A DNA stretch of 64,000 nucleotides from a virus (Duplodnaviria > Caudoviricetes): positions 14,388 to 78,387 of the IMG/VR virus record IMGVR_UViG_3300021387_001758. One strand, given 5' to 3'. Under the pieces are notes generated by a model. The model was not told the DNA's origin. It saw only the letters and a program-made list of their open reading frames with translations, and ran no database searches. This document shows positions 2,573 to 29,018 of this stretch, in pieces; positions within the stretch are counted from its first letter, which is position 1; each line of letters begins with the position of its first letter. Both the position numbers and the translations under genes were made by a program.

Positions 2573-3287
2573 ATTTTAGAAGGCATAGGTTGAAAAAAAT
2601 ATCTTGTGGGGATAATAGGTTCAGATTTTTGTTTCGTGGAGATAATGTAGGGGCCGTTTTTCTCTAACGCTTTCCAAAACCTTCCTTTTCCTAAAATAAC
2701 CCCGGCCCTTCGAGCGATTGACTTTGTTAAATTTTTAACAACCTCTTCATCAATTCTCACTCAATTTTTCCGCAAGTTACTGTCGCCCAAAAGAACATAT
2801 GTTCTTTTTTCTATTGTCAAAAAATTTTTAGAATTTCGAAAGAATTCCTAAAAGGGGCCGGTCATTTTTTATTCACCCCTCTTCAATAAAAACCACCCCT
2901 CTTTTAGTCGAACAAAGGAGATCCTATTCTGCGGGCCAGGGTCGCGAAAAAGAACATATGTTCTTTTATTTAGTCCGGACTTTGTTAAATTTTTAACAAA
3001 GTCGTAGTCCGGACTTTGTTAAATTTTTAACAGGTGATCGTCTTATCTTTGGGACGTTTTAGTCCGGCCTTTGTTAAAAATTTAACAAAGTCCCGCGCGA
3101 GTTGGGGGGCCAAACACTTTAGCGCATTAAAGTAGTAAAGCGAACCTCTTCATTTTGTATTGTGTATACAGTATACAAGGACAAAAAAATAAATTAAAAA
3201 GATAATAAAAAAATAATAAAAAGGGGTTGACAAGTTATAGTATCCATGCTATTATATATATGTAAGAAAGAGAGAGGAGAAAAGGAA

Positions 3288-3698
3288 ATGACAAAGGCTT
3301 ACTACTTCGATATGGACGGCGTGCTCGCAAACTTCCATAAGGCATATAAAGAGGATAGAATGGTTGCTCTTAAGAGAGATAAGATGGCGAACCTTGAACC
3401 GTTCGAAGCAAACGTGAAACTCGTTCGCAACCTTATCGCACATAACGAAGTAGTATATGTACTCACTAAGGCAGCCAACGAAGAGGCGATGGAAGGCAAG
3501 ATTGAATGGCTTGCAAAGTACGTTCCTGAGATGGATAAAGAACACTTCATTTGCATCGTAGGTCATGGTAAGAAAGTTGACTTCATTCGTGAAGATGGCG
3601 TACTCGTTGATGATGATATGAAGAACCTTAAGCCGTGGGCAAAGGAAGGACACGAAGTATACTACGTAGAAGAAAAGGGAATGGAAGTAGTATTCTAA
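3288..3698 (+). CDS. HAD-superfamily phosphatase, 5'(3')-deoxyribonucleotidase-like
   Basis: YFDMDGVLANF motif I and LVDDD motif IV; start moved to the RBS-preceded ATG. Confidence 0.75.
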   Translation: MTKAYYFDMDGVLANFHKAYKEDRMVALKRDKMANLEPFEANVKLVRNLIAHNEVVYVLTKAANEEAMEGKIEWLAKYVPEMDKEHFICIVGHGKKVDFIREDGVLVDDDMKNLKPWAKEGHEVYYVEEKGMEVVF

Positions 3699-3873
3699 AG
3701 ATAGAAAGAGGGTAGATAAAAGGTTTACCCTCTTCATTTATAGATAGAAAATAGATAGATAAATAGACAGTGAAAAAAGTTTAACTAATTTGTAAAAAGG
3801 GGTTGACAGTACCTCTTCATTGTGGTATATTATAGTTAAGGAAAGGGAAGATAATTGAAAGGAAGGTAAACAA

Positions 3874-4050
3874 ATGAGGAATATAAACACTGAAAACATT
3901 ATTATAGCAATTACAATAATTGCGGCAATTATCGGAACAATCATTGGTATTATTGCAATCGTAAACGGACAGATAGTAGACAGTGAAACAGTTAGCCCCG
4001 CCAACCCAGCAAGTCCCGTTCATCAGTTAATGAAGAGTGTAATGTATTAA
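3874..4050 (+). CDS. Small membrane protein (58 aa)
   Basis: Manual ORF MRNINTENIIIAITIIAAIIGTIIGIIAIV..., RBS GGAAGG, own promoter and terminator. Confidence 0.65.
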   Translation: MRNINTENIIIAITIIAAIIGTIIGIIAIVNGQIVDSETVSPANPASPVHQLMKSVMY

Positions 4051-4308
4051 AGAAGTCGAAAGACTTCTTTTCATTTACCAAGGGACGAACATACGTTCGC
4101 ACCAAGCGAACATATGTTCGTCTACTGCGGGCGGCCGCGCGCACTTTAGCACGTTAAAGCATTAAAGCATTAGTATCGAGTTTGTTTGTTAATTAACAAA
4201 CGACATATTTATACATTGAAATGAATATTTATTTTTTTAATTTGAGGGTTGACAAATATATTCAGTTGTGGTATATTATAATTGACGAAAGGAAAGGAGA
4301 AAACACAA

Positions 4309-5052
4309 ATGACAAAACTAATATTCGATACTGAGACTACTGGACTGGATAAGCCGTTCTGTTACAATGTGGGCTATATCATTGTTAATGATGAGGGTAT
4401 GGTAGAGGTAAAGAAAGAGTATGTATGCGAGCAGGTATGGCATAATCCAATGCTATTTACTACTGCATACTATGCGAACAAAAGACCAATCTATGTTAAC
4501 AGAATGAGAGCAAGACAGATAACAATGAAGAAATTCGGTTATATCTGTCAAGAGATGATTAGAGATATTGAGCGCTATAATGTTACAATGGCTTTTGCTT
4601 TCAATAGCGACTTTGACGAGAAAGTGTTCGACTTCAATTGTGAATGGTTCAAATGTAATAATCCTTTTGATAATGTGGAAATTAAGGATATTAGAGGTTT
4701 CGTTCATCACTTCTTAATTGATAACGAGTTTAAAGCATTTTGCGAAGAACACGAACTGTTTACAGAATGTGGTAACTATTCCACCACAGCCGAAACAATG
4801 TATAGATATATAACTGATGATAATACTTTTGAGGAAGAGCACACGGCGTTAAGTGATAGCATTATTGAGTGGGAAGTATTGAAGAAATGTATTGAAAGGG
4901 GCGCTGATACTACAGAGAATTATAAAGCGTATCGCTCAATTAAAAGAGATACCGAAAAGGTATTAACAATTGATAATAAAGGCGATATATATACAATTCC
5001 TTGTAAAGAGTATAAAGTTTATAAAAGCAAAAATAAAATTGTAATTAAATAA
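4309..5052 (+). CDS. DEDDh (DnaQ-like) 3'-5' exonuclease
   Basis: FDTETTG, AFNSDFD and HTALSD motifs. Confidence 0.8.
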   Translation: MTKLIFDTETTGLDKPFCYNVGYIIVNDEGMVEVKKEYVCEQVWHNPMLFTTAYYANKRPIYVNRMRARQITMKKFGYICQEMIRDIERYNVTMAFAFNSDFDEKVFDFNCEWFKCNNPFDNVEIKDIRGFVHHFLIDNEFKAFCEEHELFTECGNYSTTAETMYRYITDDNTFEEEHTALSDSIIEWEVLKKCIERGADTTENYKAYRSIKRDTEKVLTIDNKGDIYTIPCKEYKVYKSKNKIVIK

Positions 5053-5148
5053 AAAAGTTTTGAAAAAGGGGTTGACAAACCCCTTTTTCCATGTTATTAT
5101 ATGTATGTAAGAAAGAGAGAGAGTTAAAAAAAGAAAGGAAGTAAAAAA

Positions 5149-5349
5149 ATGAAGTTCTTTAAGATGATGAAGGCGGCGGTAATGATTGGTAAAATGTTCA
5201 GCGATGAGGAAAAAATCAAAGAGTTAATCGACGAATACTTTGCCGAAACCGGATTAACAGTCACTGTTGAAGAGGTAAAGGCAAACGATTCAGAAAAAGT
5301 CGACTGGTTTGCGGAATGGGTTTCTGATAAGGTTATCGCACAACTTTAA
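5149..5349 (+). CDS. Hypothetical protein
   Basis: ORF with RBS and its own promoter. Confidence 0.65.
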   Translation: MKFFKMMKAAVMIGKMFSDEEKIKELIDEYFAETGLTVTVEEVKANDSEKVDWFAEWVSDKVIAQL

Positions 5350-5452
5350 AAAATAAAATAAAAAAATAAGCGAAAGGGGTTGACAAAACCCCTTTTGTAT
5401 TGTATTATAATTATAGAAAGAGAGAGGAAGAAAAGAAAGAGAGGTAAATAAA

Positions 5453-5611
5453 ATGACAAGAAAGATGGTAGAAGAAAGAATGAAATTCGTTGAAGAAAGA
5501 CTTTTCTATATCGCGATGGTAGATATGCCGACCGCAAGAGATAAAGAACTTGAAAGAGAATTTGAACACGAACTCAAAGGACTTAAAGAACAGATGAAGG
5601 CGTTCGGTTGA
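5453..5611 (+). CDS. Hypothetical protein (52 aa)
   Basis: Manual ORF MTRKMVEERMKF..., RBS GAGG. Confidence 0.6.
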   Translation: MTRKMVEERMKFVEERLFYIAMVDMPTARDKELEREFEHELKGLKEQMKAFG

Positions 5612-5841
5612 CGGACGCTTTTTTATGTCAACCAAAAGAACATATGTTCGTCCTGGCGCGGGCGCGTCCACTTTAGCACACTAAAGCGTTAAAGTGTAGA
5701 TCTTTCGGGCGCGCTTGTTAAAAATTTAACAAAGTTCCTCTTCAAAAAATTTTAAATTTTTTAAAATAAATACTTGACAAATAAATATATTTTATATATA
5801 ATATATATAGAAAGAGAAAGGTAAAAGAAAGGAAAATAAAA

Positions 5842-6285
5842 ATGACTAAAGCAATTTACTTCGATATGGATGGAACAATCGCTAACCTTTACGGAGTTGA
5901 AAATTGGTTAGATATGCTTATCAATGGAGACGAAACACCATACAGAGTGGCGAAACCGATGATAAAAATGAATGTACTTGCAAGGTACTTAAACAAGTTA
6001 CAGAGACATGGTTATATAATCGGAATTGTTAGTTGGTTGTCTAAAGGTGGAAACACAGAATATAATAAAAAAGTAACAGAAACAAAAATCAAATGGTTGC
6101 ATACTCACTTGAAAAGTGTTGAATGGAACGAAATAAAAATCGTTGAATACGGAACACCTAAAGAAACGATTGTAAACTATCCAAAAGGTATTCTGTTCGA
6201 TGATGAAAAACAGAATAGAAAAAATTGGAAAGGTAAAGCATATAAAGAAAATCAGATTATGGAAGTGTTGAAAGCGATTGCATAA
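5842..6285 (+). CDS. HAD-superfamily phosphatase (paralog of 3288-3698)
   Basis: YFDMDGTIANL and ILFDDE motifs. Confidence 0.75.
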   Translation: MTKAIYFDMDGTIANLYGVENWLDMLINGDETPYRVAKPMIKMNVLARYLNKLQRHGYIIGIVSWLSKGGNTEYNKKVTETKIKWLHTHLKSVEWNEIKIVEYGTPKETIVNYPKGILFDDEKQNRKNWKGKAYKENQIMEVLKAIA

Positions 6286-6370
6286 AATCGCTTTCAACCT
6301 TAAAAAAGGTATTGACAAGTTAAAAATTATATGCTATAATAAAAGCAGATAAAGGAAAGGGGAAAAGAAA

Positions 6371-6664
6371 ATGACACAGAGTATTATGCAGTTGGCGGAA
6401 TTATTAGACGAGTGGAATATTCCTTATGAATTAACTGACGATGTATGCGGAAACGAAAATAATCAGTTATGGTATCCTAACTATAAACATAATATTTGTG
6501 ATGTAATTTGTCACGAATACAGTTACGGCGGAAAAGATGGCTTACTTGAAATAATGGGTTTAGTCCCTGAAGAGGTCGGCGATGATGTAGAAGGGTATTT
6601 AACAGTTGCGGAAGTATTCCACAGAATTCTGCAGGACTATTGCGAAAATAAAGTAAAAAATTAA
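6371..6664 (+). CDS. Hypothetical protein
   Basis: ORF with RBS and promoter. Confidence 0.65.
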   Translation: MTQSIMQLAELLDEWNIPYELTDDVCGNENNQLWYPNYKHNICDVICHEYSYGGKDGLLEIMGLVPEEVGDDVEGYLTVAEVFHRILQDYCENKVKN

Positions 6665-6755
6665 AAAGTTTTTTTCTAAAAAGGGTTGACAAACCCTTTT
6701 TTTCATGTTATATTATATATGTAAGAAAGAGAGAGATAAAAGAAAGGAAAAGAAA

Positions 6756-6929
6756 ATGGCTTACGTAGAAATGTTCGATTATGTGCTTTCTGTAGAACAG
6801 TATGAACGCGAACGCGCGCAGTACCACGAAGAATGGTTAGCGATGGATGATTGGGACCGTTCATGGTATGATGATGAAGAGGAATTCATCGAAGACCGTT
6901 TCCATTCCGCTTGCTATCCGGATGACTAA
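6756..6929 (+). CDS. Small acidic hypothetical protein
   Basis: MAYVEMF... after RBS; D/E-rich. Confidence 0.6.
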   Translation: MAYVEMFDYVLSVEQYERERAQYHEEWLAMDDWDRSWYDDEEEFIEDRFHSACYPDD

Positions 6930-7227
6930 AGAAAAGAAAAGTAAGCCGCAAGGCTTATTTTTTTCTATCCATCAAAAGAACATATGTTCGGGCGCGGCCG
7001 GCCGCACTTTAGCGCATTAAAGTAATAAAGTGCGCGACTTTCGCCGTCGATTGTTAAATTTTTAACAATTGATCCTATATATATATTATAATTCTCTTCC
7101 CATTATATCATACCATACAAGAGAGATAATGTCAAGGGAAAAATTAAAAAAAATTTGTTAAATTTTCCCTTGACAGATTAAAAAACTCATGCTATAATAA
7201 AGACACAAAAGGAAAGGAGAGTAAAAA

Positions 7228-7464
7228 ATGAAAGCATTTGTTACGAAAGCAAACTCGGATTATTGGTACAAAATTAAAGAATTTGACACGATGGAAGATA
7301 TTGCAAAATTTATGAAAGAGGTTGAGTGCGGATTAATTATTGAAGAAAATGATTATACTGACGATGTACTTTTTGAATTTTGGGACGGAATGAAACAGGA
7401 AGACATTCCGATTATTAAAGAATGTGCTTTACATATCACTATTTACAATGATTATGTAGAATAA
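7228..7464 (+). CDS. Hypothetical protein
   Basis: ORF with GGAG RBS and promoter. Confidence 0.65.
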   Translation: MKAFVTKANSDYWYKIKEFDTMEDIAKFMKEVECGLIIEENDYTDDVLFEFWDGMKQEDIPIIKECALHITIYNDYVE

Positions 7465-7678
7465 AAATTCTGATAAAGAGAAAAGAGTTAGTCTTTACTA
7501 ACTCTTTTCTTTTGCGCGTCCCTCTTCAAAAAAAAACTTGACAAAATAAAAAAAATATGATATAATATATATAGAAAATAAAAAAGAAAAGAAAATTTGA
7601 AAAAAAATTAGAAAAAGGGTTGACAAACAAAATTTGAGTGGTATAATAATAGTAGAAAAAGAGAAAGGAGAAAAGAAA

Positions 7679-8035
7679 ATGGCTGTTAGTAGAAAAGTAG
7701 AAAGAGAACTTTTGAGAGAAGAGTATTTGAACAAACTGATTGAGTACTTTAAAGCCGATGAAGATGTTTTGAGAGTGAAAAGTAACGAAATCGCATTTCC
7801 TGTAGTTGGTTGTAACGATAGTGAGGATTTTATCGTAATTACAGTAAAAGTGCCTACGGGTGCAAACAAAGGTACAGAGCCTTACGATGGTTACGAACTT
7901 GCCGAAGAATACGAAATGAAGTTGAAAGAGAAAGAACAGAAAAAGAAAGAAAAGGCAATCGCAAAAGAAAAGAAAATCAAGCGTGACGAAGAAGTCAGAC
8001 GCAAGAAAAAGGAAATCGCCGAAAAAGGAAAATAA
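7679..8035 (+). CDS. MAVSRKVERE-family protein with lysine-rich C-terminal tail (paralog of 13361-13720)
   Basis: Clear sequence similarity to 13361-13720 (VLRVKSNEIAFPVVGC, KVPTGANKG.EPYDGYE.AEEYEMKLK). Confidence 0.75.
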   Translation: MAVSRKVERELLREEYLNKLIEYFKADEDVLRVKSNEIAFPVVGCNDSEDFIVITVKVPTGANKGTEPYDGYELAEEYEMKLKEKEQKKKEKAIAKEKKIKRDEEVRRKKKEIAEKGK

Positions 8036-8123
8036 AAAAAATAAAAAATAAAAGAGAAAAGGGGTTGACAAAATCCCTTTTTTCATATATAATATAATTG
8101 TAAAGAGAAAGGGGAAAGAAAAA

Positions 8124-8306
8124 ATGAAAAAGAAATACAGACTGAATAAAGTAAAATTTATCCGTTTTATCTGCTTTACAATTATGCTTTTAATCATCGG
8201 TTGGTTCATGGTTTCATACATTGAAATTCTTTGTAAGAATATCACAGAAAATCCGACTTACAGCGACTGGAATTTTATCTTTGTTGCACAAAAACTTTTG
8301 AAATAA
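8124..8306 (+). CDS. Small membrane protein
   Basis: Hydrophobic segment FICFTIMLLIIGWFMVSYI. Confidence 0.6.
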   Translation: MKKKYRLNKVKFIRFICFTIMLLIIGWFMVSYIEILCKNITENPTYSDWNFIFVAQKLLK

Positions 8307-9159
8307 TCACCTTTTACCTCCTTTTTTACAATATATGGAAAAGGTCACCACTGAGTGGTGACTTTTTCCGCTCTTCAAAAAGAACATATGTTCGCCTCCG
8401 GCGCCGGACCGGAGATTGTTAAAAAATTAACAATTTCGGCACCGCGCACTTTAACGCTTTAACGTGGTAAAGTGTACGCAGACGGGCGCGCCCGCTTTAG
8501 CGCGCTAAAGTGGTAAAGGATTGTACTAAATAAAAAACATTAAAAAAGGTATTGACATTTAGGGCGGGCGGGTGTATACTATAATTGTTCCAAGGGAGGG
8601 ACAAACGAAAATAAAAAAAATAAAAAAAGTTTGAAAAATCCCTTGACAAATCAAAGCCAATGTGCTAATATATACTTGAGGGTAGGAGAGTTAAGGGTTT
8701 ACCTCACTACAAAGTAGCAAGCAGTCGCAAGTACAAGCACTACCGAAAAAACCCGAAAAAAGTTTAAAAAAAGTGTTGACAAACTAAAGCAAATGTGCTA
8801 ATATATAATCAAGGAAAGGGAGATACTTCTGAGACTGTTCCCCAATACCGAAAGGCAAGAGAACTGTGAGCCAAATAAAATTTGTAGCCGCATAGGAAGT
8901 ATCACCCGAAATCCTAAAAAAATCTAAAAAAGGTATTGACAAACTTGAAAAAGTATGTTAATATATAAATGTCAAGAGGGTCGTGGAGAGGTCGCCCCAC
9001 GAAGTAGCGTAAGAGGATAACACACAGACCTAAATCGATAAGTGAAAACCTCTTGACAATATTACAAAAGTGTGATAATATATAATCACAGAGAGGGAGA
9101 CAGGAACTCCCAAAGGTAACTAAAAAGGGTCACGACCAACGTGAGAAAGTAGGTACACT

Positions 9160-9501
9160 ATGACTAACAGAGAATTCTTCGAAATGGTAATGAATGGTAA
9201 CGTAACTGACGAGGTTAAGGCTCACGCTGAAATGTCGATTGAGAAACTCGATGCGCGCAACGCAAAGAGAGCATCTCAGCCGTCAAAGAGAGCGATTGAG
9301 AACGAACCTATCAAGGCTAACATCAGAGAGTATCTCGCTGATAAAGAGCCGACTACGGCAAGCGAAATTGCCAAGGGACTTGAACTGACTGTTCAGAAAG
9401 TTTCCGCACTGTGTAGACAGATGGTAAATGATGGTATTCTCACCGTTACCGAGGTTAAGGTAAAGGGAAAGGGCAATCAGAAAGCGTATGCTATCGGTTG
9501 A
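9160..9501 (+). CDS. Winged-helix DNA-binding protein, paralog 1 of 3
   Basis: TASEIAKGLELTVQKVSALCRQMV wHTH-like segment; similar to 12643 and 14729. Confidence 0.7.
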   Translation: MTNREFFEMVMNGNVTDEVKAHAEMSIEKLDARNAKRASQPSKRAIENEPIKANIREYLADKEPTTASEIAKGLELTVQKVSALCRQMVNDGILTVTEVKVKGKGNQKAYAIG

Positions 9502-9794
9502 CAATAATTCCCAGCCGGGAAGAGAGAGAAAATCTCTCTCTTCCTTTTTTTACCATTCCGCGGTTAACAATAACAGGTATTATGTCAACCGCGACAATAA
9601 TAATATTATTGTCAACCGGCCAAAAATCTTTATCCACAGATTGTTAAATTTTTAACAGGGCGGCCGGCCGCGCGCACTTTAGCGAGTTAAAGCGTTAAAG
9701 GATCGAGCCAAAAAAATAATTGGAAAAAAGTACTTGACAAGTCCTCTTCATTATGGTAATATATACTTGTAAGAAGGAGAAAGGAGAAATAAAA

Positions 9795-9986
9795 ATGACT
9801 TGTACTGAATGGAATAAAGGGATTAAGTTCCTCACTACTGCAGAGGTAGGCGCGTGGGTTGACCACGAAGACCGCACAGTTATTATCGAGGAGATGTGCG
9901 GAGGCAGATATTTACTCCTCGACCGCAAAGAAGTTTGCGGGGTGACCGATTCGGTCATCGAGGCGATGTCATTCCTTAGGGGATAG
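9795..9986 (+). CDS. Hypothetical protein
   Basis: ORF after GGAG RBS. Confidence 0.55.
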   Translation: MTCTEWNKGIKFLTTAEVGAWVDHEDRTVIIEEMCGGRYLLLDRKEVCGVTDSVIEAMSFLRG

Positions 9987-10140
9987 GCAACCGCCTTTTT
10001 TATTAACCAATGAACGAACGTTCGCGCGGCCGGCCGCGCGCACTTTAGTCTGCTAAAGCATTAAAGGATCGAAAAAAAGTACTTGACAAATCCTCTTCAT
10101 TATGGTAATATATGGGTAGAAAGAGAAAAGGAGATAAAAA

Positions 10141-10314
10141 ATGAAAGTGATTTTTGCAGGGTATCTTATTGTAGTCTTTTCCCTTGGCGTTCATGGGATT
10201 TTTTATGATAAAACCGATAAAAACGGAAATTTTAAAGTAAATTGGCCTTTTGGTTTATTTCTTTTCTTGTTTGGACTTACTCCCATAATTGCGAAAATAT
10301 GTAATTTAATTTGA
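10141..10314 (+). CDS. Small two-TM membrane protein
   Basis: Manual ORF MKVIFAGYLIVVFSLGVHGIF..., GGAG RBS. Confidence 0.55.
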   Translation: MKVIFAGYLIVVFSLGVHGIFYDKTDKNGNFKVNWPFGLFLFLFGLTPIIAKICNLI

Positions 10315-10383
10315 AATTGCACTTGACAAGTCCTCTTCATTGTGATATACTTATTATAGAAAGAAAGGAAAGGAGAAAGGAAA

Positions 10384-10551
10384 ATGAAAACGTACTTATT
10401 TGAAGATTTTGAAACGGGTGAGAGATTCTTTGTTGAAGAGGAAACACCGGAAAAGGCAATTGCAGTTGCCGATGAATATTTTGACCACGCTATTTTCATG
10501 TGGGAAGTATCCGAAGAATGGGCGGACTTGGCAGGATTTGACACTTACTAA
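10384..10551 (+). CDS. Small acidic hypothetical protein
   Basis: Manual ORF MKTYLFEDFETGE..., RBS. Confidence 0.6.
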   Translation: MKTYLFEDFETGERFFVEEETPEKAIAVADEYFDHAIFMWEVSEEWADLAGFDTY

Positions 10552-10655
10552 AAAAAATTAAAAAAGTTTTGAAAAAGGGTTGACAAGTTCAACCCTTTAT
10601 GGTAATATATAATCGTAAGGAAGAGAGAGTTAAAAAAAAGAGAAAGGAAAAAGAA

Positions 10656-10847
10656 ATGATGTACTTAGTAATTTTTATCGAAGAATACGTTGGCTACCAC
10701 TTTGACGAACACACCAAGTTTTTCAAGGATGAACAGTCGGCAAAGGAATATTGCCAGAAATTAAACGCCGAATTTGCCGAAGAAAATCATTGTTCGGTTG
10801 AAGATTTAGGTGACTACTACACGGTTGAGTGGGTTAAGGAAGGTTAG
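10656..10847 (+). CDS. Hypothetical protein
   Basis: ORF after RBS. Confidence 0.6.
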   Translation: MMYLVIFIEEYVGYHFDEHTKFFKDEQSAKEYCQKLNAEFAEENHCSVEDLGDYYTVEWVKEG

Positions 10848-11085
10848 AAAGGACTAACCCACCAAAAAGAGGGCAACCTCTTTTTTTTTGTTCTGCCGGC
10901 GAACATACGTTCTCGGCGGCCGCCCTCGCGCACTTTAGCGTAGTAAAGTGGTAAAGTGGACGGATCCGGCGCCCGCGCATAAACATACATGAAAATGTAT
11001 AAATATTTTTTTCAAAAAAGTATTGACAAAATTGATTATATATATTATACTATAATGGGGAAGTATGCCCAGGCGTAAAAGTGCG

Positions 11086-11109
11086 AATTTTCTGAATTGT
11101 CAGAAAATT
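11086..11109. promoter_or_regulatory. Tandem overlapping CodY boxes
   Basis: AATTTTCTGAATTGTCAGAAAATT = two AATTTTCWGAAAATT matches overlapping by 6 bp, 20 bp upstream of a -35. Confidence 0.7.
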
Positions 11110-11199
11110 AAAACTTTTTATTTTGGGGTTGACAAATTCCGTTCTATCCCTTATAATAGTAACTGTAAGGTAAAGAGAAAAGGAAAGGAACGAAACAAC

Positions 11200-11865
11200 A
11201 TGAAAATCGACAAAAGAAAAAACTATTATCTGACAATCGACACGGAAACGGCAAACGGATTTGATGACCCGATTGTATACGATTTAGGCGGATGTATACA
11301 TGACAAGAAAGGCAACGTAATGGAAACATTTTCCTTTATCATTTACGAAACCTTTTGCGGAATGAAAGATTTAATGCAGAGTGCCTACTACTCCGAAAAA
11401 ATTCCGATGTATCAGAAAGAAATTGACGAGGGAAAAAGAAAAATCGTAACCTATACCACCGCCAAAAGATATATCAATGCACTTTGTAAAAAGTACAATG
11501 TCAAGGCAATAATCGCCCACAATATGAGATTTGATTATAGGGCAACGACACGGACGCAAAGATATATCACGAAATCAAAAGTCAGATTTTTTCTTCCGTA
11601 TGGCGTTGAATTGTGGGATACAATGAAAATGGCAAATGATACAATTTGCAAACAGAAAACATATATCAAGTGGTGTAAAGAAAACGGATATATGACAAAG
11701 AACGGACAAGTCAGAAAAACGGCGGAAATCCTTTACAAGTACATTTCAGGCAACTGGGATTTTGTGGAAAATCATACAGGACTTGAAGATGTGCTAATCG
11801 AAAAGGAAATCTTTTCCAAGTGTATGGCACAACATAAGCCGATGAGAAAATTATGTTTTGACTAA
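11200..11865 (+). CDS. DEDDh 3'-5' exonuclease (paralog of 4309-5052)
   Basis: IDTETANG, AHNMRFD and HTGLEDV motifs. Confidence 0.8.
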   Translation: MKIDKRKNYYLTIDTETANGFDDPIVYDLGGCIHDKKGNVMETFSFIIYETFCGMKDLMQSAYYSEKIPMYQKEIDEGKRKIVTYTTAKRYINALCKKYNVKAIIAHNMRFDYRATTRTQRYITKSKVRFFLPYGVELWDTMKMANDTICKQKTYIKWCKENGYMTKNGQVRKTAEILYKYISGNWDFVENHTGLEDVLIEKEIFSKCMAQHKPMRKLCFD

Positions 11866-11948
11866 AAAAATTCTAAAAAAGGGGTTGACAAAGTCAGCCC
11901 CTTTTGGTATTATAATTATAGAAAGAGAGAGAAAGAAAGGTAAGAAAA

Positions 11949-12101
11949 ATGTATATGGTATGGGTATTTGATGAAGATTTATATGATGATGTGTTGATTT
12001 TTGAAGGGTCATATGAACAGTGCCAAGAGGTAGTAGCCGAAGGGCGCGCAATCGGTGAGGACCCGTATATCGTAGCCAGCGAGGACTACTACGAGGACTA
12101 A
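11949..12101 (+). CDS. Small acidic hypothetical protein
   Basis: Manual ORF MYMVWVFDEDLYDD... Confidence 0.55.
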   Translation: MYMVWVFDEDLYDDVLIFEGSYEQCQEVVAEGRAIGEDPYIVASEDYYED

Positions 12102-12642
12102 GCCGAAAAGGATAAGCCGAAAGGCTTATCTTTTTTTTTGTTCTTAAAAAGAACATATGTTCGCGGCGGGCCGGTGGCGCGCACTTTAGTCTGCTAAAGC
12201 GTTAAAGCGATCCGCGCCGCTTGTTAAAAATTTAACAATCGATCCGGTCCGCCGATTGTTAAAAAATTAACAAAGATTTTTTTCAAAAAGGGGTTGACTT
12301 TTTCCCTATGTGGGTATATACTATAATTGTCAAGGGGAGAGGAAGCCGAGGGACTCACGAGGGCGCGCACTCCACGAGAGAAGGAAAAAAATTCTCGAAA
12401 AAAAATAAAAAAACCCCTTGACACTATCACAAAAATGTGATAATATATAATTGACCCAAGGGGAGAGGTTAAAAACGAAAGTAGTAAAATATTACAACCC
12501 CGCGGGTGAAAAAAAGTTTTAAAAAGTACTTGACAAGATAGACAAAAGGTGCTATACTTAAGTCAAGGAAAGGGGAAAGACAGGAACTTTCCCAAAGGTA
12601 AATCTAAAAAGGGTTGTGACCAACACAAGAAAGAGGTGTCTT

Positions 12643-12987
12643 ATGACAAAGAGAGAATTCATGGAAATGGTTATCGCTGAGGTTACTAACGCAGAACTCA
12701 AGGCTTTTGCCCAGTCTGAAATCGAAAAGATGGACGCGCGCAACGCTAAGAGAGCCGAAACGCCTTCCAAGACGGCAATCGCTAACGAGCCTATCAAGGC
12801 ACAGATTGTCGAATTCCTGAAGGGTTGCGAGGAAAAGGTTACCGCTTCCGCTATCGCTTCCGAGGTTGAAATCTCAACGCAGAAGGCTTCCGCCCTTTGC
12901 AGACAGTTGGTAGCAGATGGTGTTCTGACCGTCGCAGATGTGAAGGTTAAGGGCAAGGGTACACAGAAGGGTTACGAAATCGCGTAG
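12643..12987 (+). CDS. Winged-helix DNA-binding protein, paralog 2 of 3
   Basis: TASAIASEVEISTQKASALCRQLV. Confidence 0.7.
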   Translation: MTKREFMEMVIAEVTNAELKAFAQSEIEKMDARNAKRAETPSKTAIANEPIKAQIVEFLKGCEEKVTASAIASEVEISTQKASALCRQLVADGVLTVADVKVKGKGTQKGYEIA

Positions 12988-13360
12988 CCTAACCCAAGCC
13001 GAGGAAGGGAAAAATTTTCCCTTCCTTTTTTTACCATTCAGACGAACATATGTTCGTGGCAGAAATTGGAAGAACATATGTTCGCGAACATACGTTCGCG
13101 GTCGATCTGGTCCGGACTTTGTTAAAAATTTAACAATCGGGGCCGGCGCCGCGCACTTTAACACACTAAAGTGCTAAAGTCTTTCGATCCGGCGCGCGGT
13201 TTACATAATATTATTATCGTTATGCGGTGCGGTTTACATAATATTATTATCGTTACGAAAAAATCCGAAAAAAATTTTTGAAAAAGGGTTGACAAATTGT
13301 GTTCTATCCCTTATACTATATATAGAAAGTAAGAGTTGAGGTTAAGGAAAGGAGTTAACT

Positions 13361-13720
13361 ATGGCAGTATCGCGCAAGGTAGAAAGAGAAATCATCCGCA
13401 AACAGTATCTCGAAATGGTAGCCGAATTCCTCAAGGAAAAGGGTGAAGATGTTCTCCGTGTTAAGTCCAACGAAATCGCTTTTCCAGTCGTTGGATGTGA
13501 AGATAGCGAAGATTTTCTCGTTATCACTTTCAAGGTGCCGACTGGCGCCAATAAGGGAATGGAACCGTATGACGGTTACGAAATGGCGGAAGAGTACGAA
13601 ATGAAACTCAAAGCCAAAGAGGAAAAGGCGAAAGCCAACGCCGAAAAAAAGGCGAAGAAAATCGCTCGCGACAAAGAAATCAGAGCGAAAAAGGCAGAAA
13701 TTGCCAACAAGGGAAAATAG
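13361..13720 (+). CDS. MAVSRKVERE-family protein (paralog of 7679-8035)
   Basis: Sequence similarity; GGAG RBS. Confidence 0.75.
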   Translation: MAVSRKVEREIIRKQYLEMVAEFLKEKGEDVLRVKSNEIAFPVVGCEDSEDFLVITFKVPTGANKGMEPYDGYEMAEEYEMKLKAKEEKAKANAEKKAKKIARDKEIRAKKAEIANKGK

Positions 13721-14035
13721 CCATTTTCTTCCAGAGGGAAGAGGGTCGGTTGACCCTCTTCTTTTATTGTAAACCGCGCAACAATAATAATATTATGTCA
13801 ACCACGAACATATGTTCGCGGCAGCCGAATTTCAAAGGCGAACATATGTTCGCGGCCGGCCGTAGTTGTCCACTTTAACACACTAAAGCGATAAAGTGCG
13901 CGCCGGCGGGCGTCCACTTTAACACGTTAAAGTAGTGAAGTGCAGAAATCCGGGCCGCTCGTTAAATTTTTAACAAAGTCAAGTTTTCTGGCAACTATTC
14001 CGAAAATTAGTTTTTTAGGAATAGTTACAACCTCT

Positions 14036-14083
14036 TCACTATATATAGTATATTTCCCTCTTCAATACCACTATATATAGTAT
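14036..14083. promoter_or_regulatory. Tandem NrdR-box pair
   Basis: CACTATATATAGTA at 14037 and 14069 (32-bp period). Confidence 0.65.
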
Positions 14084-14219
14084 GTTTTGGTCGTGCCAAC
14101 TATTCCGAAAAAATGCTTTATCGGCATAGTTATACCGCCGAATTGTCAGAATATTCCAACTATTCAGAATTGTCAGAATATTCCAGCTTTTCGCTTTAGC
14201 GTACTAAAGCGTTAAAGCG

Positions 14220-14465
14220 TTGTCAAATTTTAAAATTTTTCCAGGAGCTGCGAAAGAGCTGCGATCGAAAATTTTTTTCACGGCCGTGGGGAGCTGCGAT
14301 TTGACTTTTTTATTTCGCATCCAGGAGCTGCAAAAAATTTGACTTTAAAAGTCAAATTTCTTTTATAAAATTCAAGGAGCTGCGCTTTGGAAATTTGACA
14401 AAAAAAGTCAAATTTTTAAGGAGCTGCAACTTAGAGCTTTTGGGAATTTGACTTTAAAAGTCAAA
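14220..14465. repeat. Alternating GGAGCTGC direct repeats and TTTGAC-N7-GTCAAA palindromes
   Basis: GGAGCTGC at 14244, 14290, 14324, 14376, 14420; palindromes at 14338, 14394, 14447 (also 15195). Confidence 0.9.
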
Positions 14466-14728
14466 TTTTCAGCGCGCACCCGCACGAACCTCTTCAAATT
14501 AAAATTTGAAAAAGCTCTAAAAATCTTTTATAATATATATAGAAAGTGAGGGAAGAAAAAAATAAAAAGCTCCTCCGCTGAAGAGGAAAGGGCAAAAGAA
14601 ATTTTGACAAATCCTCAAAAATCTTATATAATATATATGTAAGATGAAGAGAGGGAAAAGTAACTTCCTTCTAAAGTAAAAACCATAACGTAACTGGGTG
14701 GTGACCTACACCAGAAAGAGAGTACAAA

Positions 14729-15070
14729 ATGACTAAGAGAGAAATGATGAACCTGATCGCTAACGGAACTATCAATGAAGAGGTTATGGCTTGGGCTGTC
14801 GGCCAGATCGAGAAGATGGATGCGGCTAACGAGAAGCGCAGAAACTCCGTTTCTAAGAAAGCGCTTGAGAACGCTCCGATCATCGACAGAATCGTGAACG
14901 AGATCCTCGGTGAGGAACCGATGACTGCTACTGATGTAGCTGGAGTTCTCGGAGTTTCTGTCCAGAAAGCATCTGCACTCCTGCGCACTGCCGTGAAGGA
15001 AGGTAGAGCTGCTGCCGAGGACGTGAAAGTTAAGGGCAAAGGCACTCAGAAGGGGTACACTCTCGCGTAG
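14729..15070 (+). CDS. Winged-helix DNA-binding protein, paralog 3 of 3
   Basis: TATDVAGVLGVSVQKASALLRTAV. Confidence 0.7.
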   Translation: MTKREMMNLIANGTINEEVMAWAVGQIEKMDAANEKRRNSVSKKALENAPIIDRIVNEILGEEPMTATDVAGVLGVSVQKASALLRTAVKEGRAAAEDVKVKGKGTQKGYTLA

Positions 15071-24340: not shown

Positions 24341-24415
24341 TGGCGGGAAGGATAGGACTCGAACCTACAACCTCGTGCTTAACAGGCACTTGCTCCACCA
24401 TTGAGCTACCAACCC
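24341..24415 (-). tRNA. tRNA-Asn(GTT)
   Basis: Cloverleaf, loop CTGTTAA, CCA. Confidence 0.92.
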
Positions 24416-24425
24416 ACGCTCAAGT

Positions 24426-24566
24426 CTATTCAGACTGCGCGCCTTCAAGATTTCTAATCTGTCTCTTCAGTTTCCTCACTACACCAGAACTCTCACCGTT
24501 CTTTCCGTTCGACTGAAGAAGATGCAGCCTATGTTTAAGACCTTCAATAGATTTTCCCTTTGCCAT
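24426..24566 (-). CDS. Small basic protein (46 aa)
   Basis: Manual ORF MAKGKSIEGLKHRLHLLQ..., AAGGAG RBS. Confidence 0.6.
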   Translation of the reverse strand: MAKGKSIEGLKHRLHLLQSNGKNGESSGVVRKLKRQIRNLEGAQSE

Positions 24567-24614
24567 AAAATAAACTCCTTTCTTAAAGAGCAAACACCCT
24601 TTAATAAATATATA

Positions 24615-25200
24615 ATTAAGAGTCTTTCAACTTACTAACTACTAACGCCACTATATTTGACTAATGGGGAGACATACCCAAGCAATAAGGAGCGACCCTA
24701 TTACTATATGCCCCGCTTGCGCCAAGCCCATAGAGGACTGATTACCTCTACCTTTCAGGTGATATTCGGCAATTTTTTAGAAAAGCAATCTCTCTATCTT
24801 CCTTGCTTCATACCAAATAAATTAATATGCTTGAGTCTTCGCAGATTTACCCTACTCGGAGTTGACATACAAACGGTTATACACAGATTTCTCTGCTTCA
24901 ACTGCAAAACGAATTATTGGCATTTCTTAGGTTTGCCCCTGGGCAGCCAACCCAAAACCTAACTAAGATTCGGCGTTTGCTATTAACAAGCGCTTCTATT
25001 ATTTCGCCCGTTCGTATTCTGTCTTTAGCTCACGTTAGCAGTAGCGCTACACCTTTGGTTTCGGCTTCCAACCTACACGATAGTCGTCACCGCCTATCGC
25101 ACAGCCCCTTAACGAGTATCCCCGTTTCTATGGACTGACCGCCCTTTCGGGTTGTTTCGGTGTACCTCAGCACTGCAATCAGCAACTCTTCACTGAGTTC
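24615..25200 (-). ncRNA. Candidate large structured ncRNA (about 580 nt; ROOL/GOLLD-like context)
   Basis: No credible ORF; several GNRA-capped hairpins; sigmaA promoter upstream; lies within the tRNA array. Confidence 0.55.
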
Positions 25201-25423
25201 TTATTTATATATTTATTAAAGAGTGTTTCTCCTTTCTTTACCTTATATAAATATTATACCGAAAATTTGGATTTTCGTCAAATTTTCAGAAATATTTTTC
25301 TCTAAAAATTTTATCTTGTTTAAAGGCTTTTGTTTATCGGTACGCCACAAGAGCCTTAACTCCCGCCACTACCCTACGTTTACCGTACAGACCCTCTCAA
25401 GCGAGCGCCAGTTAGTGGATTGA

Positions 25424-25498
25424 TGGCTACGGCGGCTGGGTTCGAACCAGCGAATGACGGAGTCAAAGTCCGTTGTGTTACCACTTCACCACGCCGCA
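25424..25498 (-). tRNA. tRNA-Gln(TTG)
   Basis: Cloverleaf, loop CTTTGAC. Confidence 0.92.
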
Positions 25499-25643
25499 AT
25501 ATAAGTGGCATATTTTCCCCATATGCCGGAAGGGCGAGTTTAACGGCCCTCGCGCCGCCTATTGATTATGCCCTCAACAGGATAAGAGCTGTGGTGCGCC
25601 TGACTGGAGTCGAACCAGCACGATCTCACAATCGAGGGATTTT

Positions 25644-26381
25644 CCTGCTACTCCATGTTGCCATGGCCGCGTCACCGCGTTGTAGTCTGGACTTTCTCTT
25701 CACCATGCGTTAATACGTTTAGGTGCGCGCCGTCAAGTCTCTACACGTTCCTCATTTGAGGCTTCGCTCGGGATTGTCCACGTGGGAGTTTCCCCGAATT
25801 TGACGCGATTCACATGGGAGTTTCCAACCCAAGTGCTCTATTTTATATTTTTGGTTTTATATGTATCAGTAAAATAATGACAATTAGGACAAAGTATTTC
25901 GAGATTATCTAAATGATTATTATTTTTATTGCCATCTTTATGATGTAACTCTAATGGAATAGGATTACCCAACCACTCAGTCAAGCCACAACGGCAACAT
26001 TTTTTCTCGAAAAATCCTTCGGCAAATAATCTATTTCTTAGTTTAAAAGAAGTAATTGCTTGTTCATTATTCAAATATTTTTCTATTGGAGTTCGATATT
26101 TTCCAATATTTTTTGTGTGTGCTTGACCAGTAAAATGAGAAGTATCAAAATTATATTTCTCACACATCTCTTTTATAGTCTTAATAGCAGAACCACCATC
26201 TGGATTATATCCTACTTTATTAGCTAACTCTCTAAAAGATTCACTCTCAGCACACATTACTGATAACTGTTCAACAGTAAATTTTTCATACTTTTTCATA
26301 CCTTTTCTCCTCTTATCTCTCTACTTATAAGTAGAAAAAAGGCAGACTAAATATAAAAAATTAAACCAAACCTATATCGAA
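25644..26381 (-). mobile_element. Group I intron (738 nt) with HNH ORF in the 5' (P1-loop) region
   Basis: AAATTCGGGGAA, AATCCCGAG, GTAGAGACT and AAGAGAAAGTCC core elements all downstream of the ORF; terminal G. Confidence 0.88.
25838..26299 (-). CDS. Intron-encoded HNH homing endonuclease
   Basis: CCRC...LELHHKDGNKNNN...LCPNCH. Confidence 0.85.
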   Translation of the reverse strand: MKKYEKFTVEQLSVMCAESESFRELANKVGYNPDGGSAIKTIKEMCEKYNFDTSHFTGQAHTKNIGKYRTPIEKYLNNEQAITSFKLRNRLFAEGFFEKKCCRCGLTEWLGNPIPLELHHKDGNKNNNHLDNLEILCPNCHYFTDTYKTKNIK

Positions 26382-26422
26382 AAGTCCCTTGCGTCTGCCT
26401 ATTCCGCCACAAGCGCGCAGTT

Positions 26423-26671
26423 CTATTCATCAAAGAACTTCCAAATCGGATTCACAAAATCATAATCCCGATTAGAAACTCTATAATTGCCAAACAACTT
26501 TACCAACTCGTCAAGCGTTCCACCGATTTTCAAATAATCTTTCATGGCTTCAAAAGCCTTACTCTGCGCGGCGATCTTATTCTTTTCCTTGTCTTTGAAC
26601 TGCTTTTCTGCAGCAAGGCAATCCTCAACTGTATCGTACTTCTTTCCGGTAATTTCACTTACAACATACAT
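26423..26671 (-). CDS. Hypothetical protein (82 aa)
   Basis: MYVVSEITGKKY... after GAGGAG RBS. Confidence 0.65.
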   Translation of the reverse strand: MYVVSEITGKKYDTVEDCLAAEKQFKDKEKNKIAAQSKAFEAMKDYLKIGGTLDELVKLFGNYRVSNRDYDFVNPIWKFFDE

Positions 26672-26705
26672 ATTGGTTTTCTCCTCACTAACAAGACAAT
26701 AATAC

Positions 26706-26786
26706 TGGTGGAGTCGATGGGAATCGAACCCATGTCCGAAACACTGCACTTTGGCCTTGATGCCCCGTCGAAACCATTCCGACCCC
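26706..26786 (-). ncRNA. ssrA: Miniature tmRNA: tRNA-like domain only (81 nt)
   Basis: 5' GGGGTCGGAATGGTTTCGACGGGG and 3' TTTCGGACATGGGTTCGATTCCCATCGACTCCACCA; G3:U70 pair; short loop in place of the mRNA-like domain. Confidence 0.8.
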
Positions 26787-26844
26787 ATAGAAGAAGGAGC
26801 TGAACGCTCCTTTCTTATATACCATATAGACAATGGTACGTAGG

Positions 26845-27265
26845 TGGTGAAACCTAAGAAATAAAAAATGGTTTAATTCTGATTCCGTAAGGTGGGTCGC
26901 AGTATCCTTCTGCGACTAAACCAATAGGTTACTTTGCCTTCTTATTTGGTCAAGGTGCGTTTGCCACAAGGCCACATATCAATCAATGAAAGCATAGTCG
27001 AACTAACTAAATCTTATGAGACAATTGCCGGTGGTAGTTTACCTATTAAAATCCATGTTAACGCATCTGCTACTGACCATCTGAGTAGCGCAGGGCTTGA
27101 CTTACATCGGCTCAAGCATACCTTGGAGAATTTAAGAACTAATCCTCAACCGCAATTCTCCTTACGATTACGTTCCGTCCGTAGACAACGCTTAGCCAGA
27201 TTAGTAATTTGCTGAATTTATATCGTTAGTCAGCGACTCCGTACACGTTTAGGGTCGAGTAAAGA
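26845..27265 (-). ncRNA. Candidate structured ncRNA block (about 420 nt)
   Basis: No credible ORF; hairpins GCTTGA/TCAAGC, GCTACT/AGTAGC, GTCGCAG/CTGCGAC. Confidence 0.4.
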
Positions 27266-27269
27266 CCAA

Positions 27270-27344
27270 TGGTTGCGGAAGTAGGATTCGAACCTACGAC
27301 TTTTAGGTTATGAGCCTAAATTGCTACCGCTGCATCATTCCGCC
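27270..27344 (-). tRNA. tRNA-Met(CAT), 1:72 mismatch (initiator-like)
   Basis: Loop CTCATAA; G1:A72 mismatch. Confidence 0.85.
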
Positions 27345-27349
27345 ATAAA

Positions 27350-27735
27350 GGAACTTTGGACGCATCCTTAGTTCCTAGGCTTACTCCGAAGAGATAGGCC
27401 TCTATTCTTCATTTGCTACAACTTCGAGTTCGTTCCACGGATCCTTTCTCTATATTTCCGAAATTCTTGTGGTGATCAAATCCACGGTGAGTATTGTTGT
27501 ATCGCATCCGTCCCTTTCGGAGACGCGACCTGTTGCTTCAGGCGACTCTCTCATAGACATTGTTCCGGAACTGCCTATGTTGGATTGTTGTATTTTATTG
27601 CAAACGCACTCCCACTTTACTCAAGGCTTGTGACTTGCACGGCCTAAACCTCTGTTTAAGCTTGATGGCGTGGTTACGTTTAGCATCGAGAGGGGAGAAA
27701 AGGAAAGGAAGTAAGATTTATCTCCCCTCTCTTAA
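27350..27735 (-). ncRNA. Candidate structured ncRNA block (about 380 nt)
   Basis: Follows a TTGACA-N17-TATAAT promoter; 5' hairpin GAGAGGGGAG/CTCCCCTCTC; GNRA hairpin GTCTCC-GAAA-GGGAC. Confidence 0.4.
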
Positions 27736-27786
27736 CTTTCTATATATATTATAGCAAAGTTTTATAATTTTGTCAAAATTTCTTTC

Positions 27787-28017
27787 TTAGAGTGCGGCCC
27801 ACTCATTACAAGCATCATATCTATCGTCAGCTTGATCTTCCCAAGCGAACCGAATTCTCGCGCGAAGGTCTTCAATGTCCTGTGCGAGTTCACCGATGAT
27901 CCATTCATCATCTTCATCTCCACGACCCCTTGCATCCTCAAGTGCAAACTCGAACTCTTCTTCCTTCATTTCAAGTTCCTTCTGGAGCATTATCGGATCT
28001 TCATAGTCTCTATACAT
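27787..28017 (-). CDS. Small acidic hypothetical protein
   Basis: ORF with AGAAGG RBS. Confidence 0.6.
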   Translation of the reverse strand: MYRDYEDPIMLQKELEMKEEEFEFALEDARGRGDEDDEWIIGELAQDIEDLRARIRFAWEDQADDRYDACNEWAAL

Positions 28018-28210
28018 TTATAACCTTCTTTCTTAGTTTAATTTTGAGAGTTGAACGCGGCGTCTCGTTCGGATTAGTGGGAATTGAACCCTTGGCTCTT
28101 ACCTACCATAAGTTTTTAACTTCGAGCCTTCTCTTACTTTTTCCTCTCTCTTAACTTTCTATATATATTATATAAGAAAATTATAAATATTTCAAATTAT
28201 TTTTTATAAA

Positions 28211-28287
28211 TGGCGACGCTGACGGGACTCGAACCCGTGACCTTCAGCGTGACAGGCTGACATTCTAACCAACTGAACTACAGCGCC
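28211..28287 (-). tRNA. tRNA-Asp(GTC)
   Basis: Cloverleaf with CCA. Confidence 0.93.
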
Positions 28288-28347
28288 AAATAATGGGAGG
28301 GGTCCTACATCTCCCGCTTTTCCACAGAACAATTCTCTGGCAGGACC

Positions 28348-28421
28348 TGGAGCGGATAACGAGAATCGAACTCGTATTCTCAGCTTGGAAGGCTGACGCT
28401 CTACCATTAAACTACATCCGC
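28348..28421 (-). tRNA. tRNA-Gly(TCC)
   Basis: Cloverleaf with CCA. Confidence 0.93.
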
Positions 28422-28430
28422 ATATAAGTT

Positions 28431-28507
28431 TGGTACTGCGACTGAGACTCGAACTCAGAACCTACGGATTAGAAGTCCGTTGCGCTCTCCAATTACGCTA
28501 CCGCAGC
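28431..28507 (-). tRNA. tRNA-Arg(TCT)
   Basis: Cloverleaf with CCA. Confidence 0.92.
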
Positions 28508-28510
28508 ATA

Positions 28511-28585
28511 TGGCATAGGCTCAAGGACTTGAACCTCAATTAGTAGTTTTGGAGACTACCGTGCTACCAATTACACTAAGCCTAC
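28511..28585 (-). tRNA. tRNA-Trp(CCA)
   Basis: Cloverleaf with CCA. Confidence 0.92.
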
Positions 28586-28589
28586 ACAA

Positions 28590-28665
28590 TGGTGGAGAAT
28601 AGGAGACTCGAACTCCTGACCCCCTGCGTGCAAAGCAGGTGCTCTCCCATCTGAGCTAATTCCCC
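28590..28665 (-). tRNA. tRNA-Ala(TGC)
   Basis: Cloverleaf, G3:U70. Confidence 0.93.
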
Positions 28666-28671
28666 AAAAAA

Positions 28672-28747
28672 TGGTGCGGGTGACACGACTTGAACGTGCG
28701 GCCCCTTAGTCCCAAACCAAGCGCTCTACCAACTGAGCTACACCCAC
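28672..28747 (-). tRNA. tRNA-Pro(TGG)
   Basis: Cloverleaf with CCA. Confidence 0.92.
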
Positions 28748-28751
28748 AAAA

Positions 28752-28840
28752 TGGCGGAGGATGTAGGATTCGAACCCACGGGGCTTTCGCCACAACAGAT
28801 TTCAAGTCTGCGCCGTTATGACCAACTTCGGTAATCCTCC
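28752..28840 (-). tRNA. tRNA-Ser(TGA)
   Basis: Cloverleaf with long variable arm. Confidence 0.92.
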
Positions 28841-28843
28841 AAA

Positions 28844-28924: not shown

Positions 28925-28938
28925 AAATTAATTTTTAA

Positions 28939-29015: not shown

Positions 29016-29018
29016 ACA

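Follow-up and report, generated by a model that had tools for sequence, protein, structure and literature searches.

The conserved inverted repeats of phage phiC31 and the stoperators of mycobacteriophage L5 are dispersed operators, specific to the phage and recognised by its own repressor. We describe here an early region that resembles them, located in a 64,000-nucleotide stretch of DNA from a tailed phage (bases 14388-78387 of the 78.4-kb IMG/VR viral record IMGVR_UViG_3300021387_001758, 66% complete according to CheckV; the whole stretch is called the window below). As in phiC31 and L5, 10-30 copies of one short site lie in intergenic parts of the early region, and the type of site differs between related phages. 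In contrast to phiC31 and L5, the sites in the window equal consensus operators of the host regulators Rex, LexA and HisR, and no cognate phage gene was found.

Known precedents for host regulators on phage DNA are isolated cases: Spo0A on phi29, LexA on GIL01 and CtrA on phiCbK-like phages. First, the virulent Bacillus phages phi29 and Nf carry host Spo0A boxes (PMC2731898); the likeness with the present locus is that of a lytic genome in which several sites for a host global regulator would tie phage development to the state of the host. The Spo0A sites of phi29 overlap early promoters and origins and repress transcription and replication, whereas the sites described here stand outside core promoters, correspond to three or four host repressors and reach a far higher copy number. 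Second, the tectivirus GIL01 is controlled by host LexA with the help of a phage co-factor, gp7, which stabilises LexA (PMC4551915). Both phages use host LexA boxes and have no classical repressor of their own, but GIL01 has a few SOS boxes in the single promoter P1, compared with about 15 boxes over 11 spacers, just downstream of terminators, in the window. Third, CtrA sites in phages of Alphaproteobacteria led to the proposal of 'lytic deferment' (PMC9437464). In that case also, dense host transcription-factor sites in virulent genomes were inferred by comparative genomics; it differs from ours in the type of regulator (an activator/repressor response regulator), in the host phylum and in its single-factor logic.

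Rex operators of Clostridia share with the phage sites the 18-bp inverted repeat, in which the arms are conserved and the W-rich centre varies. In the host they occur singly or in pairs at the promoters of NADH-reoxidising genes, whereas the phage sites lie in spacers upstream of promoters, next to sites for LexA and HisR. Our literature searches turned up no dense multi-regulator operator array that includes Rex and HisR sites, and no paper on Rex sites in phage DNA. Nor did narrow searches yield HisR sites in phage DNA, or an early region of a virulent-type phage tiled with consensus-grade operators of several unrelated host repressors.

Rex-type palindromes in the early region

The sites lie among some 20 small genes that form a block on the + strand (2.7-14.6 kb), with minus-strand genes on both flanks. 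This block is served by several intrinsic terminators and by some 35 promoters close to the sigma-A consensus (TTGACA-17-TATAAT); the spacers between its small operons start 10-16 nt past the T-tract of a terminator and end at the next promoter.

The palindrome TTGTTAA-N4-TTAACAA (TTGTTAANNNNTTAACAA) is present in nine perfect copies in the window (starts at 2724, 2982, 3071, 5715, 7051, 8416, 12221, 12256 and 13119), and was absent from all of 100 dinucleotide-preserving shuffles. The whole 78.4-kb record contains no other perfect copy. With up to two mismatches allowed, 13 matches were obtained in the window for 1.46 expected, the additional ones being three sites with one mismatch each (3016, 9641 and 13959) and a degenerate, doubtful site with two mismatches (TTGTTTGTTAATTAACAA, 4182-4199). 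All 13 are confined to 2724-13976; four of them lie inside 2724-3088, where three are embedded in the direct repeat TAGTCCGG(A/C)CTTTGTTAA. Pattern scans and shuffles thus bore out the counts of nine perfect copies and 13 in total given in a preliminary description of this DNA, and reading of the sequence confirmed the cluster and the repeat that it had reported at 2724-3088.

The preliminary description had also taken the palindrome for the clostridial variant of the Rex operator, and it does match the Clostridiaceae-type Rex consensus, as given in PMC8457756, which cites Ravcheev 2012. The pattern is a genuine host motif: it gave 45 forward versus 10 control matches in 201 Clostridia genomes. 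Perfect sites numbered at most three per genome in this set, versus nine in 11 kb of phage DNA.

All 13 Rex-type sites are outside likely genes, in the non-coding spacers between terminators and promoters, and they occupy 9 of the approximately 11 spacers. Measured from the start of the site to the start of the next -35, they lie 38-645 bp upstream. No site overlaps a core promoter (0 of 13), and none has the repressor-like position at or over a regulated promoter. Since the sites are upstream of promoters and never over them, classical repression by the sites of the window is unlikely.

LexA-, HisR- and NrdR-type sites in the same spacers

Two other palindrome families, missed in the first reading, share the spacers with the Rex-type sites. 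Family A (CGAACATATGTTCG), which we take to be the Firmicute LexA (Cheo) box, accounts for the 15 or so LexA-type boxes mentioned above; at no more than one mismatch, the pattern CGAACNNNNGTTCG (CGAAC-N4-GTTCG) had 13 matches in the array, for 0.84 expected window-wide. Family B, CACTTTA-N6-TAAAGTG, is present in about 14 copies across the 11 spacers; the pattern CACTTTANNNNNNTAAAGTG at no more than two mismatches had 19 matches for 0.63 expected, all of them at 3115-14211. At many of these sites a third TAAAG is found exactly 8 bp further on. Dimers of the TrpR family bind in tandem at an 8-bp offset, and the position of the third TAAAG fits this mode of binding.

Family B is identical, letter for letter, to cacTTTAnnnnnnTAAAgtg, the common Firmicute HisR operator consensus, a 20-bp palindrome that was validated in vitro with Ruminococcus gnavus HisR, the binding of which is stimulated by histidine (PMC9413887). 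According to our reading of the same paper, HisR regulons consist of only a few operators or operons. Motif B had been considered as private to the phage on the basis of 7 versus 3 control matches in the 201 Clostridia genomes, outside the metagenome-assembled genome (MAG) bin G006; this interpretation was reversed, as B is the HisR consensus and the small size of HisR regulons deprived the count of power.

The usual order is terminator, LexA box, GC-rich block, HisR site with a half-site offset by 8 bp, GC-rich block, Rex site and promoter. We numbered the site-bearing spacers as modules 1-11, all on the + strand. Module 1 (2724-3140), at the head of the early array between a divergent sigma-like gene and the first early promoter (3227), contains Rex-type sites at 2724-2741, 2982-2999, 3016-3033 (one mismatch) and 3071-3088, LexA-type boxes at 2793-2804 and 2952-2963, and a HisR-type site at 3115-3140. 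Module 2 (4086-4199, next promoter 4249) has LexA boxes at 4086-4099 and 4107-4120, a HisR-type site at 4142-4167 and the Rex-like site at 4182-4199. Modules 3 (5637-5732, next promoter 5774) and 4 (6977-7068, next promoter 7170) have one site of each type: LexA at 5637-5650 and 6977-6990, the latter about 12 nt past the terminator T-tract; HisR at 5669-5696, which consists of two overlapping matches offset by 8 bp, and 7005-7032; Rex at 5715-5732 and 7051-7068. In module 5 (8381-8512, next promoter 8552) a LexA box (8381-8394) and a Rex-type site (8416-8433) precede two HisR-type sites (8447-8474 and 8493-8512), and module 6 (9641-9700, next promoter 9734) has a Rex-type site with one mismatch (9641-9658) and a HisR-type site (9675-9700).

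Modules 7 (10011-10060, next promoter 10083) and 8 (10900-10950, next promoter 11023) are devoid of Rex-type sites; the former combines a LexA-like box with one mismatch (10011-10024) and a HisR-type site (10041-10060), the latter a LexA box (10900-10913) and a perfect HisR-type site (10931-10950). Module 9 (12150-12273) contains a LexA box (12150-12163), a HisR-type site (12182-12209) and two Rex-type sites (12221-12238 and 12256-12273), the second of which starts 38 bp before the -35 at 12294. Module 10 (13043-13181, next promoter 13289) has three LexA boxes (13043-13056, 13071-13084 and 13085-13098), a Rex-type site (13119-13136) and a HisR-type site (13154-13181). Finally, module 11 (13805-13976) has LexA boxes at 13805-13818 and 13839-13852, HisR-type sites at 13871-13898 and 13915-13942, and a Rex-type site with one mismatch at 13959-13976; the approximately 550 bp beyond it are devoid of promoter.

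After this last module, in a promoter-poor non-coding island, two NrdR-box-like 16-mers of the form (T/C)CACTATATATAGTAT are present on the + strand, TCACTATATATAGTAT at 14036-14051 and CCACTATATATAGTAT at 14068-14083, separated by a 16-bp linker; they are labelled by what we presume to be the NrdR box consensus. The NrdR operator layout, as described in PMC13584703, consists of two partially palindromic 16-bp boxes with a 15-16 bp linker. An isolated HisR-type site with a TAAAG offset by 8 bp (CGCTTTAGCGTACTAAAGCG) is located at 14192-14219 (+ strand). Other host motifs, the DnaA box and the CodY, cre, Fur, PerR and Spo0A sites, were not enriched in the array. The identity of three motif families out of three with published or textbook host operators, together with the NrdR-type pair, cannot reasonably be ascribed to chance. 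Adjacent to the isolated HisR-type site, 14220-14470 is an origin-like repeat field. It combines, in interleaved order, the palindrome AATTTGAC-N7-GTCAAATT (four copies) and GGAGCTGC(G/A) (about six copies); the related locus L014 has a similar repeat, ATTTGA-N9-TCAAAT.

Seven modules can be aligned as a composite unit of about 110 bp, in which nothing but the three palindrome cores has stayed invariant, the GC-rich linkers being diverged. In addition, the order of the motifs is permuted in modules 5, 6 and 10. Hence each core behaves as a separate unit under selection, and not merely as part of a block that was duplicated. These properties bear on the proposal that the modules are mainly recombination substrates or structural DNA by which gene cassettes are shuffled and duplicated, with palindromes that have no specific protein partner, a model for which is provided by the PeSL cassettes of T4-type phages. 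Such an origin would explain that modules align as units, that the block contains paralog pairs (3288-3698/5842-6285, 4309-5052/11065-11865 and 7679-8035/13361-13720) plus a trio of winged-helix (wHTH) genes, and that cassette content varies between relatives. It would not explain why the cores alone are invariant, why their order is permuted, why they equal host operator consensus sequences, or why relatives have tandem head clusters free of cassettes, and we consider it very improbable.

Other features were observed in and around the spacers. Pure G/C runs of 12-19 nt, with GGCCGGCC, GCGGCCGC or GCGCGC, flank the HisR-type sites in the module linkers (4127-13912); the longest G/C runs of the window are all in the array, and the GC content of the genome is 36%. 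An AT-rich 21-bp palindrome, GACAATAATAATATTATTGTC, and a degenerate second copy are located just upstream of modules 6 and 11 (9590-9612 and 13781-13800). In the terminator hairpins at 5062-5089, 5370-5398 and 6678-6701 the loop (GAAAAAGGGGTTGACAAACCCCTTTTTC) holds the -35 TTGACA of the next promoter, so that terminator and promoter are fused in one element. Upstream of the wHTH gene that starts at 9160, five consecutive strong promoter-like sites (8552-9160) each precede about 100-130 nt without an open reading frame (ORF), and these units may be small RNAs or structured leaders. An RNA-level role for the sites themselves was considered and is unsupported, as a search of the array against Rfam gave no match and the sites lie between terminators and promoters.

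Site types across the phage family

The same sites recur, in varying combinations, in dozens of related phages from rumen and gut. Rex-type sites were found in the related loci L008, L061, L005, L122, L158, L205, L208, L211, L225, L231 and in many more, in combination with LexA-type sites (L211, L061), with HisR-type sites (L231, L005), or alone (L205, L208). The LexA-HisR-Rex triad pattern had no exact match in IMG/VR. Closely spaced perfect Rex-type pairs are present in 46 IMG/VR contigs, of which a majority have ORFs in common with this phage family; the remainder are mostly short loci or members of a separate group of phages of about 50 kb. The latter group (GC 0.46, no ORFs shared in the locus) has one conserved intergenic Rex-type pair, 17 bp apart (L214:10762-10814; also L216, L221, L224, L227 and L233).

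Family-wide, the Rex-type sites have fixed arms around a central 4 bp that varies while staying W-rich, as for Rex operators; similarly, the LexA-type sites of L061 vary solely in their central 4 bp. A fixed AAAT/AAAA centre that would set the phage Rex-type sites apart from those of the host was withdrawn after these counts. In several relatives the first early promoter is closely preceded by a head cluster of sites that contains no gene. In L208 (920-1153) this cluster consists of 10 Rex-type sites with an exact 24-bp tandem period, immediately upstream of that promoter; there are 11 Rex-type sites in L205, 12 in L158, and 10 interleaved with 8 LexA-type sites in L061.

These positions are relevant to a dedicated redox switch, in which Rex would repress phage early transcription at low NADH and release it at high NADH, coupling the launch of infection to the redox state of the host. 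Three observations agree with it: the exact Rex consensus, the first early promoter of L205 and of L061, which has one Rex-type site just past it (at about +1 and about +15) and others just upstream, and the recurrence in three phages (L211, L008 and, in the window, site 12256) of a site starting 38 bp before the -35. However, no site of the window overlaps or follows a core promoter, most of the near-consensus promoters have no Rex-type site nearby, and the accompanying LexA and HisR sites imply that redox is not the sole input. We regard a dedicated switch as quite unlikely. The redox-linked phage element of the preliminary description did not survive as a self-standing entity, the Rex-type sites being one component of a composite LexA-HisR-Rex spacer module, and the geometry argues against a simple NADH-gated repression switch.

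Other relatives have, instead of these sites, 10-17 copies of TTAGATGT-N3-ACATCTAA, of TTAGACGT-N3-ACGTCTAA, of TTCGTACGT-N3-ACGTACGAA or of three more palindromes (AGTTAG-N6-CTAACT, TGTATAC-N-GTATACA and AATTGTC-N-GACAATT). In L009 (6063-13932) and L013 (4343-9148), a 19-21 bp palindrome (TTAGATGT-N3-ACATCTAA or TTCGTACGT-N3-ACGTACGAA) lies about 10 bp upstream of essentially every early -35 and directly follows the preceding terminator. Such private palindromes at fixed promoter-proximal positions, and the switch of type between close relatives, are what would be expected if all these sites were operators of the phage's own early circuit, at which phage-encoded dimeric DNA-binding proteins would shut off or tune the strong early promoters; identity with host operators would then reflect mimicry or competition. 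The lack of enrichment of the D/E palindrome type in Clostridia genomes points in the same direction. The candidate binders would be the three wHTH paralogs of the array (9160-9501, 12616-12987 and 14729-15070) or a protein encoded in unseen DNA, the phage records of the family being 20-82% complete.

The wHTH family has 115 members in about 55 loci, and every phage of the group has 2-5 paralogs inside the array, with a DNA-binding fold of the MarR/PadR type. The recognition helix (QKASALCRQ), however, is nearly identical across phages with quite different palindrome sets, and the predicted fold (pLDDT 88) is that of a generic MarR/PadR-like winged helix; the wHTH paralogs were rejected as binders because of this absence of covariation and of the generic fold. 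No Rex (PF06971), LexA (PF01726) or Trp_repressor (PF01371) DNA-binding domain was detected in the partial phage genomes G000, G001, G002 and G005. In three rounds of gene-motif association no ORF cluster tracked the Rex-type arrays, the best one being present in 11 of 38 positive loci, and comparison of the whole records of G000, G001 and G002 with that of G005 yielded a homing endonuclease (54953-55363) as the sole carrier-specific ORF. The two hallmarks of the phiC31 and L5 systems were thus not observed: no phage repressor tracked the site type in these incomplete genomes, and the three site types of the window are not private to the phage but equal host consensus sequences, an identity very unlikely to arise by chance. 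On balance, operators read by the phage's own proteins appear unlikely.

The location of the element on phage DNA, assumed from the start, is supported by the IMG/VR record and by gene content. The window encodes a minor tail protein, a topoisomerase II large subunit, a sigma-factor-like protein and a homing endonuclease, and its proteins have relatives in Enterococcus Herelleviridae-like phages, in the gut phage phAss-1 and in unannotated faecal phage scaffolds; a megablast search against GenBank phages gave no match. RNA genes are clustered on the - strand, with 21 transfer RNA (tRNA) genes at 24341-29989, a full-length ROOL RNA at 24602-25221 (306 bits) and a mini-tmRNA (transfer-messenger RNA), recognised by its tRNA-like domain only, at 26706-26786. 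The marker protein encoded at 11065-11865 pulled out 54 IMG/VR loci and 9 further contigs in rumen and gut MAG bins (labelled Acutalibacteraceae, Clostridia, Erysipelotrichaceae and others). The Clostridia-like host put forward in the preliminary description is plausible in view of these bins and of the Clostridia-type host predicted for phAss-1 in the phAss-1 paper, but binning is weak evidence, and host assignment via MAG bins was rejected because bin G006 is full of fragments of different phage arrays.

Proposed docking or titration of host repressors

The reading that we favour, with modest confidence, is that the spacer sites dock or titrate host repressors. Three host-operator families in one window are most simply accounted for if the host proteins themselves bind, and from the nature of the motifs the phage probably docks or soaks up several host regulators, which goes beyond redox sensing alone. 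The early region (about 2.7-14.3 kb) would act as a chain of small operons with near-consensus sigma-A promoters, separated by about 11 non-transcribed spacers that hold operator-grade copies of host repressor sites. Upon entry of the DNA into the cell, dimers of host Rex, LexA and HisR would occupy these sites. The most likely consequence would be sequestration of the three repressors, and this titration would lift repression of SOS genes, of fermentation with NAD+ regeneration and of histidine supply, and perhaps of genes for deoxynucleoside triphosphate (dNTP) synthesis. As a second or alternative role, the bound proteins may form roadblocks or insulators between early operons, with an occupancy that follows the state of the host.

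Sequestration is suggested by consensus-perfect sites outside core promoters, by site numbers at least equal to a whole host regulon, and by the head clusters of 10-12 sites in relatives; the same evidence favours sequestration or state-dependent roadblocks over classical promoter occlusion. LexA, histidine-bound HisR and, at low NADH, Rex are all bound to DNA in an undamaged, replete cell, so that occupancy of the sites would be highest in a healthy host. Rex-type sites on both sides of the first promoter of L205 and of L061, and the repeated offset of 38 bp, would be compatible with a promoter-coupled role.

Several observations weigh against docking or titration. First, part of the copy number of the sites results from duplication of whole modules, and the fixed 38-bp offset of some Rex-type sites points to a promoter-coupled function and not to a pure sponge. 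Second, the corresponding positions in close relatives are taken by other palindromes, such as TTAGATGT-N3-ACATCTAA in L009. That motif, like TTAGAYGT-N3-ACRTCTAA, showed no enrichment in 100 Clostridia genomes (7 versus 24 control matches), and the perfect copies of TTAGAYGT-N3-ACRTCTAA in the Clostridia set were all in one MAG bin full of phage fragments; part of the repertoire of the family may therefore be read by phage proteins. Third, as the records are incomplete, a phage-encoded binder could lie in DNA that they do not cover. Fourth, the Rex N-terminal domain (PF06971) was found in one of the four MAG bins holding relatives, in which binning is unreliable. The best of these bins, G006, an Acutalibacteraceae MAG that holds L075, includes numerous small contigs that bear various palindrome arrays of the family (types B, C, D, E and J). 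Plainly contaminated with several phages, this bin provides no host evidence.

A more far-reaching form of titration, which we find rather doubtful, is that the spacers constitute a protein-free takeover device, the phage DNA being a multi-regulon sponge for Rex, HisR, LexA and NrdR. Titration would then take place as the genome enters and replicates, with no need for a phage-encoded effector, and would turn on SOS genes together with fermentation, the recycling of NAD+, the supply of histidine and the synthesis of dNTPs; related phages would differ in the set of host regulators that they titrate.

Should the sites be occupied, the phage would read three to four independent signals of host state (DNA damage, histidine, NADH/NAD+ and dNTPs) or would neutralise the corresponding repressors by DNA alone. 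The set of operators would then also be a new clue to the host that can be read from the sequence of uncultured rumen and gut phages.

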